A DNA stretch of 9,898 nt, taken from IMG/VR virus record IMGVR_UViG_2698536372_000014, one strand, 5' to 3'. Source of the stretch: a virus. Taxonomy: Duplodnaviria > Heunggongvirae > Uroviricota > Caudoviricetes. Each line of letters opens with the position of its first letter. Position 1 is the stretch's first letter. The notes beneath the pieces were generated by a model. The model was not told where the DNA came from. It saw nothing but the letters and a program-made list of their open reading frames with translations, and searched no databases. Position numbers and translations under genes: made by a program. Shown here in pieces: positions 2,405-9,875 of this stretch.

Positions 2405-2560
2405 TTACTCCTCAGGTTCGTAAGCTGTGAAGACAGCGACCTCCGTCTGGCCGGTTCGGATTCGTACCTCGCAGAGGTCTTTCCTCGTTACCAGTGCCGT
2501 CACTATGACGGTTAAACAGATGACGATCAGGGCGATTAACATCGCCTTTTGCTGCTTCAT
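2405..2560 (-). CDS. hokD: Hok-family type I toxin (51 aa small membrane peptide)
   Basis: Translation MKQQKAMLIALIVICLTVIVTALVTRKDLCEVRIRTGQTEVAVFTAYEPEE matches the Hok/Gef family and, from memory, HokD/RelF closely: single transmembrane helix and the conserved RKDLCEV.IRTGQTEVAVF motif. Confidence 0.85.
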   Translation of the reverse strand: MKQQKAMLIALIVICLTVIVTALVTRKDLCEVRIRTGQTEVAVFTAYEPEE

Positions 2561-2617
2561 AGCCTGCTTCTCCTTGACCTTTCGGTCCGTAAGAGGCAAT
2601 CTATATGTGACGAGCAT
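2405..2617 (-). CDS. Mok-like in-frame N-terminal extension of hok (70-aa frame)
   Basis: The ORF extends hok upstream in the same frame (MLVTYRLPLTDRKVKEKQA-MKQQ...), resembling MokC as I recall it; GTGAGG lies about 8 nt upstream of ATG 2617. Confidence 0.5.
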   Translation of the reverse strand: MLVTYRLPLTDRKVKEKQAMKQQKAMLIALIVICLTVIVTALVTRKDLCEVRIRTGQTEVAVFTAYEPEE

Positions 2618-2660
2618 ATAGGGGCCTCACTTCGATTTATAGTCGGGTGGGGCTTTTATC
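2605..2660 (+). ncRNA. Putative Sok-like antisense RNA covering the mok translation-initiation region (boundaries approximate)
   Basis: Hok loci are normally controlled by an antisense RNA across the mok SD/start. The plus strand here has a possible -35 TTGACC at 2574-2579 and a hairpin (CCUCAC...GUGGGG) followed by CUUUUAUCU at about 2625-2660. Inferred from locus architecture; ends not determinable by eye. Confidence 0.3.
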
Positions 2661-2752
2661 TATCTGCCGTTGGTGTTCATGCCCGAGGCAGATAGCCTCA
2701 AGCACCCGCAGCAATCCTACTTAACTCTGCCGTTACAGCAAACCGTTTTCGC

Positions 2753-5280: not shown

Positions 5281-5946
5281 TCAAACAAAACCAGCCGCTT
5301 TCCGGCGTTCATATTCCTGTTTCAGCAACTCAATTGGCGTTGGCCCCGACGGGCGTTTGGGGGCCGCCAGTTGTCGCCGGACTGGCGGAACGCTCAGGCC
5401 GTTACTAACATGCTTTGCCCATTTCGTCAGTTGCCGTTCTGCAAGCCGTTTTAATTCCCCTTCGGTCATCTGGCGCTCAATCCCCTTTGAACGCATCTCG
5501 AGGCAAATGTGATACAGCACAGGCTGAGACCACGGGTACTTATCACTTCCGTCGTATCGCCAGGACTCATTGCGCCAGCGGCGGTACTCCTCCATCACAG
5601 CATCCACCGTCAGACCGAATGGATTGGCTCCGCTTTTCGAAATCAGTGCCACAAACTCAGCCAGGTCCGGAGGCCATGTTTCACCCGCCCGGCAGCGGTC
5701 CATGCACTGGCGGCAGACCTGCCGGATTTGCTGCTCAGTCATCGCGCCAATCTGTGCAATCCAGAGCTTCGAAGGTGCGGCCCCGTTCTTCTGGATCCAG
5801 CGGTTCGAATAAACCACCCCCATGAGTTCCCACAGCTTCCAGGCCGTTTCCGTCGCTGATAAATCCGTTTTCACGTTCCCACTGCTCACGTGCTGCCCGA
5901 ATTTCCTGAACTGCCCGTGATGCGGTGCCACCTGGTGCTGCTGCAT
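5281..5946 (-). CDS. Lambda P-like replication protein (DnaB helicase loader)
   Basis: 221 aa; ATG at 5946 with AAAGGGG about 7 nt upstream. The centre and C-terminus align by eye with lambda P as I recall it (AMTEQQIRQV vs ITTMEQVNAG; SDKYPWSQPVLYHICLEM vs AESYPWKSNAHYWLVTNL; TEGELKRLAERQL vs TDAELRRKAADEL). Confidence 0.7.
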   Translation of the reverse strand: MQQHQVAPHHGQFRKFGQHVSSGNVKTDLSATETAWKLWELMGVVYSNRWIQKNGAAPSKLWIAQIGAMTEQQIRQVCRQCMDRCRAGETWPPDLAEFVALISKSGANPFGLTVDAVMEEYRRWRNESWRYDGSDKYPWSQPVLYHICLEMRSKGIERQMTEGELKRLAERQLTKWAKHVSNGLSVPPVRRQLAAPKRPSGPTPIELLKQEYERRKAAGFV

Positions 5947-6775
5947 GGTTTACCCCTTTGCTGACTGGTTTAACCTGCGCCCTGACGTGATTTACGTGAC
6001 GGGCGAATTTCTGCTCCCACTGAATCTGCGTAAACACTTTCCCCTCCGCTGCCCAGTAGTCCCGGAAGGCGGCAAGTTCAGCAGGTGTAAATTCTGTCTC
6101 CGGCAAAGCCATCCCCCACAACGCAGCCCGTCGTCGAAAATCCCGTGACGGATACCAGCTATCGCTCATCGGGAATTTTCCGATGGGTTCGCTCAGGCCA
6201 TACAGGAATACAGGGGGGGCTGCCTGTAACGACAAAACTTCCTGCTCACTGGTCGGAGCACTCTCGCGTGCGTTATGTGTGGGGTTTAGATCTTTGGGTT
6301 CCTTTGGGTTCCGTGATCCGTTTTTGGGTGTCTTTGATGGAAAATTTGGGTGTCTTTGGTTATTTTCCATGCAGCTAAGAGTTCTGTTTTTGGGTCTGTT
6401 TTGTGCTGAAACATAACCATTTTCGGTACTGTTTTTATTAACAGCACCAATTTTACCCACCTTTAAAGACTCCCGTTTTTGGGTGTATTCAGGCTCGGCA
6501 ACACTTTCTTCTACACCGATAAGTCGGTACACCACAATTTGCTTTGTTCTGCCTTTTCTCTCACCGGTATCAACAATTAACCCAATCTCCATCAGGTGTC
6601 GTAAGCTGTCCTGCACAGTCTTTTTGTTCAGTTCCGTTACTTCTGCCAGTGCAGATACAGACGGGTATGCACACAAATCGGCACCGCACATATCAGCAAG
6701 CCAGGTCAATACTGACTTACTGGATGAACTGCCGGTTTTCACCTTTTTAGCCCATCGTAGTGCATCGATACTCAT
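5735..6775 (-). CDS. O-like replication initiator (N-terminal HTH DNA-binding domain, central linker containing ori, C-terminal domain)
   Basis: Best start is ATG 6775 (MSIDALRWAKKVKTG...) with AGGGG 5-6 nt upstream; the track's upstream start at 6850 has no SD. The low-complexity linker coincides with the iteron array; the gene sits immediately upstream of the P-like gene. Confidence 0.65.
   Translation of the reverse strand: MSIDALRWAKKVKTGSSSSKSVLTWLADMCGADLCAYPSVSALAEVTELNKKTVQDSLRHLMEIGLIVDTGERKGRTKQIVVYRLIGVEESVAEPEYTQKRESLKVGKIGAVNKNSTENGYVSAQNRPKNRTLSCMENNQRHPNFPSKTPKNGSRNPKEPKDLNPTHNARESAPTSEQEVLSLQAAPPVFLYGLSEPIGKFPMSDSWYPSRDFRRRAALWGMALPETEFTPAELAAFRDYWAAEGKVFTQIQWEQKFARHVNHVRAQVKPVSKGVNHAAAPGGTASRAVQEIRAAREQWERENGFISDGNGLEAVGTHGGGLFEPLDPEERGRTFEALDCTDWRDD
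6290..6485. repeat. Putative origin of replication: iteron array (TTTGGGT-type direct repeats) plus adjacent AT-rich segment, inside the O-like gene
   Basis: TCTTTGGGTTCC twice (6292-6312), TTTGGGTGTCTTTG twice (6323-6336 and 6345-6358, 22 bp apart), TTTTGGGTCTG (6387) and TTTTGGGTGTAT (6476), flanking an AT-rich stretch at about 6361-6460. Analogous to ori-lambda within O. Confidence 0.55.
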
Positions 6776-7298
6776 ACGAACCCCTGGCAGACATTTGTTT
6801 ATCTGCAAAGTAATATTGGTATTGCTGACGATACGCGTGCTTGAAAGCAATAGCTTTTTCTATAAGCTCGTCAGTCTCACGTTCCACAACAACTGGATCC
6901 GCAAAAAGCAGCCCGGACTCCACCACATCGCCATATTCTTTGTTTAACCCGGCGATCATGTACGTAATGCTTTTTCCGTCAGTAATTTCACAATACAATC
7001 TGAAATCGCTGATCCGGATAGCCTCCATAATTGCCGGAATCAGCGCCGTGAATTTGTCACGCTTATCTCTGGTGTCGATAGCTTTCCAGCGTTCGAATAT
7101 CTTCACCCGGTTAACGCCCAGCGCCCGTTGATCAACCTCGCCATCATTAAACGTGACGCGTTGAACATCGATGTTCGGGCGTTCTTTCAGAGCCCAGAAT
7201 GCTTCCGTGATTAATATCGTCGCCTGCTCCTGTGTCATTCCTGGTCGGCATACCCAGGTATCCAGAGCCTCACAAACCTGTTCAGTGGTGATTTTCAT
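6747..7298 (-). CDS. Hypothetical protein at the cII position, possibly YdaT-like
   Basis: 183-aa ORF immediately downstream of the Cro-like gene, overlapping its 3' end by 17 nt; the TALIPAIMEAI segment resembles a motif I associate with YdaT-family proteins. Tentative. Confidence 0.5.
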   Translation of the reverse strand: MKITTEQVCEALDTWVCRPGMTQEQATILITEAFWALKERPNIDVQRVTFNDGEVDQRALGVNRVKIFERWKAIDTRDKRDKFTALIPAIMEAIRISDFRLYCEITDGKSITYMIAGLNKEYGDVVESGLLFADPVVVERETDELIEKAIAFKHAYRQQYQYYFADKQMSARGSYEYRCTTMG

Positions 7299-7509
7299 TG
7301 TTCAACCGCCCCGCCCGCTTTGCCTTACGATATTCGTCATAAACTTTGGGGTCGTACTGAAGTTCCCCGCCGGATGCCTCTTGCAGGCGCATCGCGCGAC
7401 CTTCAGGAACCAGTTCCCCCCATGCAGCAACGCTTGCCAGCCTAACTCCTGCGACATTGGCAAGCTTTGTTTTGCTGCCAAAAAACGCTATAGCATCAAT
7501 TTTCAACAT
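7282..7509 (-). CDS. dicC: Cro-like DNA-binding protein DicC (YdaS family)
   Basis: 75 aa, MLKIDAIAFFGSKTKLA...VPEGRAMRLQEASGGELQYDPKVYDEYRK.KRAGRLNNENH, very close to K-12 DicC as I recall it; AAGGGG 5 nt upstream of ATG 7509; divergent from dicA. Confidence 0.8.
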   Translation of the reverse strand: MLKIDAIAFFGSKTKLANVAGVRLASVAAWGELVPEGRAMRLQEASGGELQYDPKVYDEYRKAKRAGRLNNENHH

Positions 7510-7585
7510 ATCGAACCCCTTAGATTTTCCTAAGGAAACTAGATCGTAGAGAAACCTAAGTCAAGAAAAATTAGAATTACCTAAT
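7510..7585. promoter_or_regulatory. Divergent dicC/dicA promoter-operator region
   Basis: 76-bp AT-rich intergenic region between divergent repressor genes, containing CCTTAG (7518-7523), CCTAAG (7529-7534, within the palindrome TTCCTAAGGAA) and CCTAAG (7555-7560). Confidence 0.55.
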
Positions 7586-7993
7586 ATGAAAAACGAAACC
7601 TTCGGTGCTCGCCTCTTATACAGGCGAAAAAAATTAAAACTGTCTCAGGCCGCATTAGGTAAGCTGGTCAAAGTGGCTCACGTAACAATTTCTCAATGGG
7701 AAAGAGATGAAACACAGCCAGCGGGGAAGAGATTATTCGCACTGAGCCAGGCGCTTCAGTGCTCGCCGACTTGGCTTCTTTTTGGAGATGAAGATAAGCA
7801 ACCAGGCGAACCGATCCCAGATAATCAGCCAGTCAATCTGACAGAAGATCAAAAAGAGTTGCTTCAACTGTTCGACGCACTGCCTGAGTCAGAGCAAAAG
7901 GCTCTGTTGTCAGAGATGCGTGCTCGAGTTGAGAATTTCAACAAACTTTTTGAAGAACTACTCAAAGCTCGCAAAAGAAGCGCAAATAAATAA
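7586..7993 (+). CDS. dicA: XRE-family HTH repressor DicA (cI functional analogue)
   Basis: 135 aa; the HTH region (LSQAALGKLVKVAHVTISQWERDETQP) and the strongly conserved FALSQALQCSPTWLLFGDEDKQP plus the C-terminal ALPESEQ...EMRARVENFNKLFEELLKAR match DicA as I recall it. Confidence 0.85.
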   Translation: MKNETFGARLLYRRKKLKLSQAALGKLVKVAHVTISQWERDETQPAGKRLFALSQALQCSPTWLLFGDEDKQPGEPIPDNQPVNLTEDQKELLQLFDALPESEQKALLSEMRARVENFNKLFEELLKARKRSANK

Positions 7994-8059
7994 CCCCCCT
8001 TTTTTTCGCAACTCTCTGTAATAAAAAGCACAAACTTTCAAATACTTGTGTTTTTTACA

Positions 8060-8125
8060 TCAAGAAGCTTAGGTTTTTCTACACAAAAAGCTTGACCATA
8101 ACTCTTAGGCTATTCTAAATTCTAC
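8060..8125 (+). promoter_or_regulatory. Putative promoter of the rightward dicB-type operon with flanking CTTAGG repeats
   Basis: -35 TTGACC (8092-8097), 17-bp spacer, -10 CTAAAT (8115-8120); CTTAGG at 8068-8073 and 8104-8109 brackets the -35. A GAGGA-type RBS and GTG 8201 follow about 80 nt downstream. Confidence 0.45.
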
Positions 8126-8200
8126 TCATCAAGACACCGCACGGTGTTCTCAGCAAACAGTTCCGCTACCCGGCGTTAAGGGGAAGCAGAGGATTTCTCA

Positions 8201-8557
8201 GTGGGCGAAGTCAAACATCAGAATGGAAGGCGTCCAGGGATCAGCAAAGAAACAGCGATGGCGCTTTATATTGATATCAGCGCCATTGCCGGACAGGTAA
8301 GAGTTATCAGAGCGGTAACTAAGCGGTATGCGCCTTTACTTCAGAAAGTCTCTGGTGAGTGCACCGAAGATATTGTCAACGATTTCGTCATCGAACTGCG
8401 AGGACTCATCTTCAGTTACAAGGTGACCACAATTTTTGCAGATGGCTCCCGCGAAACTGTCAGAGCCCTGCGGCTTAAAGGATGTGTCAAAGACTTAGCC
8501 ACCACATTCTGGGCAAGAAAACTTGATTGTATTCATAACCAATTTCCTCTCGAGTAA
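8201..8557 (+). CDS. Hypothetical protein, first ORF of the DicA-controlled operon (118 aa from GTG 8201; alternative ATG at 8258)
   Basis: Open frame with AGAGGA about 6 nt upstream of GTG 8201, immediately downstream of the predicted promoter; no recognisable family. Confidence 0.45.
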   Translation: MGEVKHQNGRRPGISKETAMALYIDISAIAGQVRVIRAVTKRYAPLLQKVSGECTEDIVNDFVIELRGLIFSYKVTTIFADGSRETVRALRLKGCVKDLATTFWARKLDCIHNQFPLE

Positions 8558-8629
8558 CAGACCCCTCAGAGGATACCACCTCGCCTGACGTGGTTAAAAA
8601 GCAGGCAACGCTAACCACAAGGAGCCGAC

Positions 8630-8848
8630 ATGCAGAAACGAGACCCCGTCATCATCGCGCCAGACTATACCGATGATGAACTTTATGAGTGGATGCACCA
8701 GAAAATTAAGGCGGTGCAGGACCTGAAATGGGCCAATGAAGCCAGGGCTAAGCAGGCTGAAAATCTGTCCGCTCTGGAGCAGGATATCACCAATCTGGAA
8801 AAAGCAGCGGCATTAAGCATTGCCAGAATGATTACATACCCACGTTAA
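8630..8848 (+). CDS. Hypothetical small protein (72 aa), YdfC-like by size and position
   Basis: ATG 8630 with strong AAGGAG 5 nt upstream; same length as K-12 YdfC, which sits upstream of dicF in Qin. Sequence identity to YdfC is not verified. Confidence 0.6.
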   Translation: MQKRDPVIIAPDYTDDELYEWMHQKIKAVQDLKWANEARAKQAENLSALEQDITNLEKAAALSIARMITYPR

Positions 8849-8870: not shown

Positions 8871-9278
8871 ATGGAATTTAAAGATTTACCAACGCCATTA
8901 CAGGAAATGGCATCGAATATAGTTCGTTCACAACTGGCTACTCTTGACCTTAGTACCGCAGAAAAAGAAACCATCGATAATATGGTTCGTAATGTGCGCA
9001 ATGCTTTTTCTGGGCTATATGGTTCTGATAATCAAAAGCAGGAAAGCGATGTTAATAAACGGGTAATTTCTGTTTGCGTGAATGGCCATGTTCTTTCATC
9101 AATCAAAACAGAAACGGCGACAGTCTTCGATTGCCTTTGCATTGTACAGAGCCTTGTTGATGCCCTGTTTCGTTCAGTGAATTTAGAAAATGATGCAAAT
9201 CTGCGAGGGCGCATAATAGCACATCCATATGCACATACTTTAGGCTCTGTGGATATCAAAGATCCCACAAATCTTTAA
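8871..9278 (+). CDS. Hypothetical protein (135 aa) in the AT-rich cargo segment
   Basis: ATG 8871 with GAGG 6 nt upstream; AT-rich codon usage distinct from flanking genes; a long ORF despite AT-richness argues it is real. No recognisable family. Confidence 0.55.
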   Translation: MEFKDLPTPLQEMASNIVRSQLATLDLSTAEKETIDNMVRNVRNAFSGLYGSDNQKQESDVNKRVISVCVNGHVLSSIKTETATVFDCLCIVQSLVDALFRSVNLENDANLRGRIIAHPYAHTLGSVDIKDPTNL

Positions 9279-9489
9279 TGAAATAGTTAACGCGAATTGT
9301 ACTTGCTCTTTCGGTTGCTTTCAGAATACGCGTTGAAACTGCTGGCGGTAATTTGGTATTCCATTTATTAAAATCATGCCCGGGAAAGTACTCTTCGAAA
9401 ATACTTTTAACTGCAGACTCGCCTATTGAAATGCTGCTTACCATGCGATTTTGATAAAGGCATTTAGCAATAAGAGTTGATTTTAACAT
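9256..9489 (-). CDS. Hypothetical small protein (77 aa), convergent with and overlapping the 3' end of the 135-aa gene
   Basis: ATG 9489 preceded by a near-consensus AGGAGGG 4-5 nt upstream; AT-rich; antisense to the DicF precursor transcript. No recognisable family. Confidence 0.5.
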   Translation of the reverse strand: MLKSTLIAKCLYQNRMVSSISIGESAVKSIFEEYFPGHDFNKWNTKLPPAVSTRILKATERASTIRVNYFIKDLWDL

Positions 9490-9822: not shown

Positions 9823-9875
9823 TTTCTGGTGACGTTTGGCGGTATCAGTTTTACTCCGTGACTGCTCTGCCGCCC
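9823..9875 (+). ncRNA. dicF: DicF small regulatory RNA (antisense inhibitor of ftsZ translation) with its 3' terminator
   Basis: TTTCTGGTGACGTTTGGCGGTATCAGTTTTACTCCGTGACTGCTCTGCCGCCC followed by TTTTT matches the 53-nt DicF sequence as I recall it, including the terminal GC stem and U-tract. Confidence 0.8.

Follow-up and report, generated by a model that had tools for sequence, protein, structure and literature searches.

We consider it fairly probable that, in the ompW-site prophage of Escherichia coli O157:H7, a two-strand coding cassette replaces ydfA-ydfB at the head of the early-left (dicB) operon. A plus-strand ORF and a minus-strand gene form a probable antisense overlapping gene pair, and substitution patterns among related phages suggest that proteins are encoded on both strands. 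The plus strand would encode a conserved protein with a core of approximately 95-99 residues (118 if an upstream GTG is used), and the minus strand a 66-residue zinc-ribbon protein that would lie wholly inside the plus-strand ORF and point at the repressor gene. An earlier note, made from the DNA alone, had described only the plus-strand ORF; its suggestion of a distinct, first-in-operon gene held, whereas the minus-strand gene had been overlooked, the connection with kil functions found no support, and the start codon is uncertain.

Prophage and gene order

The window, that is, the whole stretch of 9,898 nucleotides that was analyzed, was 100% identical to E. coli O157:H7 chromosomes and to the records of 'PPompW', the ompW-site prophage of E. 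coli O157:H7. The prophage is defective, carrying IS1203 and a truncated replication gene. The genes around the cassette were arranged as follows.

6747-7298, minus strand: ydaT-like gene
7282-7509, minus strand: cro/dicC-like gene
7586-7993, plus strand: dicA-like repressor gene
8201-8557, plus strand: 118-codon ORF, GTG start, TAA stop at 8555-8557 (ORF listing)
8630-8848, plus strand: ydfC, downstream of the 118-codon ORF
Between ydfC and DicF: a 135-aa ORF, then a 77-aa minus-strand ORF
9824-9875: DicF, then dicB, with its start codon at the end of the window

The ORF listing confirmed the 118-aa ORF of the earlier note, with a GTG start, and this was the first ORF past the dicA-like repressor gene and a promoter-like site. 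In the search against Rfam, the region 8000-8700 contained no RNA family, and the only matches of the whole window, sok and DicF, were both outside this region.

Presumed early promoter and operator-like repeats

Upstream of the 118-codon ORF, the promoter scan and the repeat search identified three elements.

8068-8082: operator-like element CTTAGGTTTTTCTAC, just 5' of the early-promoter -35 (repeat search)
8092-8121, plus strand: sigma-70 promoter-like site TTGACC-18-TAAATT (promoter scan, 9/12 match)
8105-8121: second operator-like element, overlapping the -10 region of the 8092-8121 site

The repeat search paired 8068-8082 with 7546-7560 (15 nt, 93% complementary) and 8105-8121 with 7568-7584 (17 nt, 82% complementary) as reverse complements, the partner elements lying between cro and the repressor gene. 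These inverted copies around the promoter-like site resemble an OL/OR arrangement, a layout that by inference supports repressor control of the operon. The 8092-8121 site is presumed from its sequence and position to be the repressor-controlled early-left (dicB-operon) promoter. The earlier claim that the ORF is the first gene behind a repressor-controlled promoter agreed with this promoter-like site and with the operator-like repeats downstream of the repressor gene. Transcription of the plus-strand gene from the early promoter would begin only once the DicA-like repressor is lifted, and the layout suggests that its product would be an induction-specific early accessory protein.

Relation to ydfA-ydfB of K-12 Qin

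In a K-12-type strain, the same slot contained ydfA (51 aa) and ydfB (42 aa). The slot in K-12 Qin was alike in extending from the leader after dicA to ydfC, 5' of DicF and dicB; whereas Qin has two short, unrelated ORFs there, the window has one long ORF and an antisense gene.

8128-8186, plus strand: conserved 5' leader, common to the upstream region of K-12 Qin ydfA (three-way DNA alignment)

The leader, which contains the palindrome ACACCG-CA-CGGTGT, was shared in the DNA alignment as far as GTTAAGGGGAA, where total divergence set in, and homology came back at the ydfC ribosome-binding site. Both this alignment and the upstream sequences of other E. coli-clade loci placed the cassette boundary directly 3' of GTTAAGGGGAA. 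No match of DUF1391 or YdfB to the plus-strand ORF was obtained in Pfam and NCBIfam. The lack of these matches, together with the diverged DNA, indicated that the plus-strand ORF belongs to a different cassette and is not a long ydfA or ydfB. The earlier note had suggested that it might be a distinct gene, as it appeared longer than ydfA and ydfB; alignment and family searches bore this out and revealed none of the ydfA/ydfB identity that would speak against it.

Start, family, and predicted fold of the plus-strand protein

Two forms of the plus-strand protein have been annotated, the 357-nt form of the GenBank phage records and a shorter one, which is the only form called by RefSeq.

8189-8194, plus strand: Shine-Dalgarno AGAGGA, 7 nt 5' of GTG 8201
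8258-8557, plus strand: alternative 99-aa form, ATG start (RefSeq call, WP_001240336.1, hypothetical protein)

From the sequence, the start of the 118-aa form is uncertain between GTG 8201 and ATG 8258. GTG 8201 follows a good Shine-Dalgarno sequence; the GTG of codon 1 was ATG in one E. coli-clade lineage (L010), with AGAGGA conserved. Codons 1-19 had no coding periodicity and looked unconstrained (12/8/10 by codon position), and the other clades had their starts near codon 18-20. ATG 8258 was aligned with these starts, yet was preceded by a poor Shine-Dalgarno sequence. The 99-aa form corresponded to the core that is conserved in the plus-frame family, and the starts of the other clades fell only a few codons away from ATG 8258. 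The sole family match of the plus-strand protein was phrog_21318, a PHROG without annotation (E = 8.6e-67), in which residues 20-118 were aligned with profile positions 1-99 of 99. Relatives of the plus frame reached down to 33% identity. A profile search of species-representative genome contigs with the plus-frame alignment gave no match, presumably because these genomes lack the cassette.

Pfam, NCBIfam, PADLOC, and the PDB contained no relatives of the plus-strand protein, and the fold search returned nothing past generic helical bundles. The AlphaFold2 model, built from only 16 sequences, showed a helix-helix-hairpin-helix arrangement with a pLDDT of 74.6; the predicted fold is thus helix-helix-beta-hairpin-helix. 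The protein had neither sequence nor fold similarity to Lambda_Kil (PF06301) or DicB (PF05358), and in operons carrying the plus-strand ORF separate kil and dicB genes sit further downstream. The placement of the gene by the earlier note in a slot for kil, exclusion, or anti-host functions therefore gained nothing from these searches, as no Pfam, NCBIfam, PADLOC, or fold match linked the protein with such functions. By a rough estimate, random DNA of 9.9 kb, read in all six frames, would contain approximately three ORFs of this size. The length of the plus-strand ORF alone was within chance, so that the case for its significance rests on comparative evidence.

Zinc-ribbon gene on the minus strand

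Inside the plus-strand ORF, the opposite strand carried a gene with its own upstream signals.

8336-8536, minus strand: zinc-ribbon gene of 66 codons plus stop (ATG 8536-8534, stop 8338-8336), a pseudogene in the window
8545-8551, minus strand: Shine-Dalgarno GAGAGGA, 8 nt before the ATG
8570-8597, minus strand: candidate promoter TTAACC-16 nt-TATCCT (read from upstream sequences)

Plus codons 46-112 were the exact antisense mirror of this gene: its ATG faced plus codon 112 (CAT) and its stop faced codon 46 (TTA), each as the reverse complement. The codon register was exact, with position 1 facing position 3 and position 2 facing position 2. OLGenie nomenclature (PMC7531306) terms such a register sas13; another name for it is -1. 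Since the minus-strand gene is antisense to the plus-strand ORF, much of the conservation of the latter is a mirror of the former.

The minus-strand ORF of the window was an orthologue of the ECs_2282 family (NF047912), with TAA at codon 14 in the window copy. In strain 64EVA, where the region was 96% identical, RefSeq calls a minus-strand 'ECs_2282 family putative zinc-binding protein' and no plus-strand ORF; the 64EVA minus-strand ORF differed from that of the window essentially by the stop. A full HMMER search of 1.84 billion representatives, clustered at 50% identity, yielded 62 clusters of the ECs_2282 family, nearly all of 63-75 aa and matched along their length. The family motif was CPxCG...GAxCxxCGH..TEDD, and the four Cys were invariant in an alignment of 27 members. 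The minus-strand protein had the ligands CPxCG...GAxCxxCGH, with an acidic C-terminal helix, and in its AlphaFold2 model, of modest confidence (pLDDT 61.7), a beta-rich N-terminal part was followed by a helix at the C terminus. Sites variable within the E. coli clade were distributed 24/5/10 by plus codon position, so that variation was concentrated at minus third positions, and the minus frame gave a pN/pS of 0.16 and an OLGenie-like ratio of 0.12. The minus-strand family is almost certainly genuine.

A strong Shine-Dalgarno sequence was present at the position of the minus-strand gene in every clade, as seen in 14 clade representatives; the 15th (L107) ended at the contig end. A -10-like hexamer, TATC(C/T)T, lay 33-37 nt 5' of the minus ATG in all clades, and the candidate promoter of the window had a TG one base 5' of the -10 (TGgTATCCT). 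This candidate matched the consensus at only 8/12 positions and consequently went unreported by the promoter scan; the argument for it is conservation and not score. With its own ribosome-binding site and promoter-like element, the minus-strand gene would be convergent with the early promoter.

Other zinc ribbons gave no more than sub-threshold matches to the minus-strand protein. TIGR03655 (Lar-type) scored 15.6 bits (E = 0.015), below the cut-off of 39.6, and phrog_6422 (Lar-type) gave a weak profile match (E = 0.008). Lar-type zinc ribbons are alike in being small prophage proteins with CxxC...CxxC, encoded in the early-left region; with scores so far below the cut-off, the likeness is a lead only. 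PADLOC gave one weak match, PDC-M14A (E = 0.0014). In the literature library searched, no paper on the ECs2282 family or locus was retrieved.

These results bear on a simpler explanation, in which the plus-strand ORF is a stand-alone early gene for a kil-, exclusion-, or anti-host-type protein and the minus-strand ORF is a meaningless shadow. Such a gene would fittingly be the first in a derepressed operon, and the evidence for plus-frame coding given below applies to it equally. However, the family of the minus-strand ORF is broad and its proteins are uniform in length, its Cys ligands are invariant, and its distant members occur in same-direction operons of unrelated context; the minus frame is also under the stronger purifying selection of the two, and the plus-strand protein is unlike Lambda_Kil, DicB, or any defence model. 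We therefore regard the single-gene explanation as very improbable.

Nonsense codon in the O157-type allele

Comparison with relatives located the interruption of the minus-strand gene.

8495-8497, minus strand: nonsense codon TAA, where relatives have GAA (Glu14)

The minus-strand ORF of the window reads MNTIKFSCPECGG*VFDTS... and is cut after 13 residues, whereas in relatives both ORFs are intact, with a Shine-Dalgarno sequence and a start on each strand. The 52 residues after the stop, which are the longest unbroken part of the window copy, scored 31.7 bits against NF047912, below the cut-off of 37, and the intact 64EVA orthologue scored 57.2 bits; this indicated that the window copy is a pseudogene of a family member. 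All four Cys codons were present in the window DNA, but the stop at codon 14 falls between the two CxxC pairs, and no full-length minus-strand product is possible there. The base change that created the TAA also turned Phe99 of the plus frame, a residue almost invariant among plus-frame relatives, into Leu. In the window, the minus-strand gene is dead (Glu14 to stop), and only the plus-strand product, with the coupled Phe99Leu, would be possible.

The minus stop was found in 20 loci fetched from IMG/VR and RefSeq, all of the O157-type allele, and all O157-type copies fetched carried it, as did all 11 PPompW phage records with 100% identity. The zinc-ribbon gene is a fixed pseudogene in the O157:H7 ompW-site prophage. 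The same codon governs the annotation: RefSeq calls the plus-strand ORF only where the minus-strand gene is broken, and only the minus-strand gene where it is intact. A single nonsense mutation consequently decides which strand RefSeq names, which is an annotation artefact. In GenBank, one Citrobacter and one Klebsiella genome were annotated with both ORFs at once.

Coding evidence in the plus frame

We collected 54 distinct DNA versions of the cassette in six clades from phages of Escherichia, Klebsiella, Citrobacter, and Enterobacter. The clades were E. coli (33 versions), Klebsiella/Citrobacter, Enterobacter-like (12 versions), and three singleton lineages. The plus frame was open in 54/54 versions, including 33/33 of the E. 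coli clade, where approximately eight stop-creating single changes were expected at the average rate; most loci had been collected by plus-frame queries, and the sample was thus biased to open plus frames. The plus frame was also open in a locus reached via the minus-strand protein only (P0032) and in Klebsiella and Citrobacter loci whose minus-strand proteins were found independently. The minus frame was broken in at least three lineages. The reading frame was therefore kept across homologous prophages, a point on which the earlier note had proposed that its gene be judged.

As long as a sense gene is free of TTA, CTA, and TCA codons, the antisense frame in register with it has no stop.

The minus-strand gene inside the plus-strand ORF contained no TTA, CTA, or TCA codons, and in the neighbouring genes these types made up 24-26% of Leu and Ser codons. 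At the local codon usage, the probability that the minus-strand gene avoids all antisense-stop codons was 0.04-0.18 per lineage. Three distant members of the zinc-ribbon family likewise had an open in-register antisense frame, clearly without a plus-family protein; these open shadows indicated that an open frame alone proves little.

Evidence that is free of the minus-strand gene came from the part of the plus-strand ORF outside the overlap.

8258-8335, plus strand: non-overlap part, codons 20-45 (26 codons), with plus-frame third-position periodicity across clades

The parsimony changes in codons 20-45 were 56/43/88 by codon position (chi-square p ~2e-4), counted on an approximate neighbour-joining tree of mosaic, probably recombining sequences. 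The sole indel in these codons was 3 nt. The clean signal came from the clades other than E. coli, in which the changes were 27/26/53 and the OLGenie-like ratio was 0.45 for the plus frame, compared with 0.95 when the empty antisense frame was scored. No clear periodicity was seen in the same codons of the E. coli clade (10/6/11 and 11/8/12).

Within the overlap, we compared the plus-frame effect of changes that were synonymous in the minus frame. The mean BLOSUM62 score in the plus frame was 0.99 for minus-synonymous transitions, against an expected 0.31 (P = 0.001), and -0.31 for transversions, against an expected -1.72 (P = 0.004). This bias to conservative replacements was significant in each group, with P = 0.003 in the E. 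coli clade and P = 0.014 and 0.005 in the other clades. When permutation was done at the level of sites, so that recurrent changes do not affect the outcome, the test gave P = 0.002, 0.025, and 0.0002, the value for the E. coli clade being 0.002. No such bias was found when the conservative-replacement test was applied to the empty antisense frame outside the overlap (P = 0.08 and 0.95) or to five flanking genes (P = 0.18-0.97).

Two other measures were set aside. The Nei-Gojobori pN/pS of the plus frame in the overlap was 0.99 in the E. coli clade, and we rejected its reading as plus-frame neutrality: plus-synonymous sites are minus first positions, so that the value is confounded by the minus-strand gene and uninformative. 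The OLGenie-like plus ratio of 0.47-0.51 was not used as evidence, as an antisense frame free of genes gave 0.30-0.58; the empty antisense frame of the E. coli clade gave a false positive of 0.30 (P = 0.007), which means that this ratio cannot separate the hypotheses in the overlap frame.

The signals for translation and the orientation within the operon were also conserved. Every clade had a start codon and a purine-rich Shine-Dalgarno sequence just 5' of the conserved TLxVDxSA block. In every context seen, the plus-strand ORF was co-directional with the early operon: it came first behind a dicA-like or cI-like repressor gene, followed PaaA2/ParE, lay 3' of a HigB module of opposite orientation, preceded kil, or came directly after cro.

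The principal alternative to an overlapping pair is that the locus has, or once had, a single gene, the zinc-ribbon gene of the minus strand, the plus-strand ORF being its untranslated antisense shadow, which pipelines call here only because the real gene has the O157:H7 stop. The switch of the RefSeq calls between strands according to the state of the minus-strand gene agrees with this, as do the pN/pS values in the E. coli-clade overlap (minus 0.16, plus 0.99), although the plus value is confounded as described above. The most conserved motif of the plus frame, VTT..ADGS, is a forced mirror of GA.C..CGH; distant family members have open antisense frames with no plus-family protein; the sample favors open plus frames; and the plus-strand product matches no family of known function. 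A mere shadow, however, would not account for periodicity and conservative replacements in the 26 codons outside the minus-strand gene, or for variation at minus-synonymous sites that follows its plus-frame effect while the control frames are null. A start codon and Shine-Dalgarno sequence in all six clades, an only indel that is a multiple of three, and an orientation matching the surrounding operon in every context also argue against it. We consider the shadow explanation unlikely, while giving it appreciable weight. Purifying selection was found on each frame beyond what the other frame explains, subject to the sampling bias, to the parsimony on mosaic sequences, and to a modest number of sites, and the substitution pattern makes it likely that the plus frame genuinely codes for a protein.

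The difference between the clades raises another alternative, in which the plus-strand gene works in active phages of the Klebsiella, Citrobacter, and Enterobacter types and decays in defective E. coli prophages, both cassette genes of the window being non-functional leftovers. The clean non-overlap signal indeed comes from the clades other than E. coli (27/26/53 and 0.45 versus 0.95, against 10/6/11 in E. coli), the window prophage is defective, and the nonsense mutation also alters the nearly invariant Phe99 of the plus frame. Nevertheless, the conservative-replacement tests were still significant in the E. coli clade (P = 0.003; P = 0.002), the plus frame was open in every one of its distinct versions, and the cassette was also present in Evi and vB_EcoS-813R8, two phages with deposited genomes. 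Decay to a relic is thus quite improbable.

Discussion

Both ORFs of the cassette are already in databases, as hypothetical proteins and an NCBIfam family. The pair is notable for its exact register, the full embedding of one gene in the other, and the fact that both frames are conserved in phages belonging to several genera. In the arrangement that we favor, a two-strand coding cassette, only the minus-strand gene would be expressible in the lysogen. Upon derepression, early transcripts would cross the minus-strand gene in antisense, and the two products would alternate. Because each gene is the exact antisense of the other, expression of one should exclude expression of its partner.

Antisense embedded overlapping genes have been described in E. 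coli O157:H7, for example ano/ECs2385, pop/ompA, asa, and laoB (PMC5960689, PMC7103648, PMC6294744, PMC5810103). The present pair is like them in consisting of long ORFs on opposite strands, one of which is fully embedded, with evidence of purifying selection. Unlike in those cases, both frames are kept here in phages from several genera of enterobacteria, with protein identities of 33-70%; furthermore, the embedded gene is the better-established one, and the evidence for the pair is comparative. The genes ano, pop, asa, and laoB are reportedly mostly young and taxonomically restricted, and are said to have RNA-seq and Ribo-seq support.

Antisense or convergent transcription occurs at several phage switches, such as lambda oop against cII, P22 sar against ant, and pR/pL of phage 186. 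The cassette resembles these systems in having a promoter, in our case a candidate, that faces into the early operon right beside the immunity region. In Klebsiella- and Citrobacter-type phages it lies immediately after cro, the slot that in lambda is occupied by cII and oop. The lambda oop, P22 sar, and 186 systems act through a small antisense RNA or through interference between promoters, whereas the antisense unit of the cassette encodes a conserved protein.

A further step would be a functionally coupled pair across enterobacterial temperate phages, with the zinc-ribbon protein made in the lysogen, the helix-hairpin protein made on induction, and mutual suppression of the two; we regard this as a rather doubtful extension. 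Suppression might then proceed by convergent transcription or RNA pairing, and the cassette might represent a protein-coding antisense switch or an antidote/effector pair beside the immunity region. Under such coupling, the loss of the zinc-ribbon partner in O157:H7 would have either unlocked or disabled the cassette.

Most reported pairs are young, lineage-restricted overprints; here, a gene of approximately 99 codons contains, in register, the whole of a 66-codon gene. If both frames are translated, the evolutionary evidence for this long antisense overlapping pair would rank among the better examples from bacteria or phages. A convergent protein-coding unit at the start of the early operon could also affect the tightness with which kil, dicB, and DicF are silenced in lysogens.

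Putative control region and 5' leader upstream of the cassette

Inverted copies of two operator-like elements, which lie in the cro/repressor intergenic region (7546-7584), were found at 8068-8121, around the early-left promoter-like site, and the layout of these two elements in the window, 7546-7584 versus 8068-8121, resembles OL/OR. Between this site and the plus ORF, the first open reading frame after the repressor gene, the following features were located:

8128-8186, 5' leader, conserved with the region upstream of ydfA in K-12 Qin
8137-8150, perfect palindrome ACACCG-CA-CGGTGT, within the 5' leader

The 3' part of the leader, GTTCCGCTACCCGGCGTTAAGGGGAA, was the sole part kept in other contexts of the cassette, which consists of the plus ORF and the zinc-ribbon gene on the minus strand.

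The minus gene has a candidate promoter of its own, which is overlapped by a further repeat:

8575-8596, minus strand, hairpin-like inverted repeat ACCAC-N9-GGTGGT

This repeat was conserved at the same place in three of the fetched loci (L106, L108, and L022). Pairing appears to be kept although the stem sequence varies among clades.

Ends and clade-specific forms of the plus ORF

In the Klebsiella/Citrobacter clade (L004-L009 and L021), codon 2 of the minus gene was TCA, the complement of which, TGA, is the stop codon of the plus ORF; therefore, the plus ORF ends one codon ahead of the minus-gene start codon. Its end in several other clades was at, or one codon past, the histidine codon (CAT) mirroring the ATG of the minus gene.

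The plus ORF of the Enterobacter-like clade (L108-L126, for example L108 1390-1785, and proteins P0097-P0099) had an N-terminal extension of approximately 35 residues containing one CxxC motif (CKSCG or CPHCG). Here a repressor gene of the cI type, encoding an S24 peptidase domain, was followed directly by a near-consensus promoter, TTGACT-17-TAATAT, and then by the plus ORF.

Neighboring genes and state of the prophage

Elsewhere in the window, the following ORFs and small RNAs were identified:

2558-2707, minus strand, sok antitoxin RNA belonging to a hok/sok module (Rfam RF01794, 103.9 bits)
8871-9278, plus strand, 135-aa ORF, phrog_1363
9256-9489, minus strand, 77-aa ORF, phrog_10348, convergent with the 135-aa ORF
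9824-9875, plus strand, DicF small RNA (Rfam RF00039, 76.7 bits), followed, right where the window ends, by the start codon of dicB

The 3' ends of the two convergent ORFs overlap by 23 nt. In L106 and L107, the gene immediately 5' of the plus ORF was a homologue of the 135-aa gene.

According to the RefSeq annotation (L001), in the region at approximately 5700-6850 and upstream, the replication gene with a DnaT-like domain is truncated and adjoined by a frameshifted IS1203; judging from these annotated lesions, the prophage in the window is defective.

In some E. coli prophages (L012-L016), the repressor gene was separated from the cassette by toxin-antitoxin modules inserted on the upstream side of the plus ORF, either PaaA2/ParE or HigB together with an HTH partner, indicating that this position is a hot spot for accessory genes.
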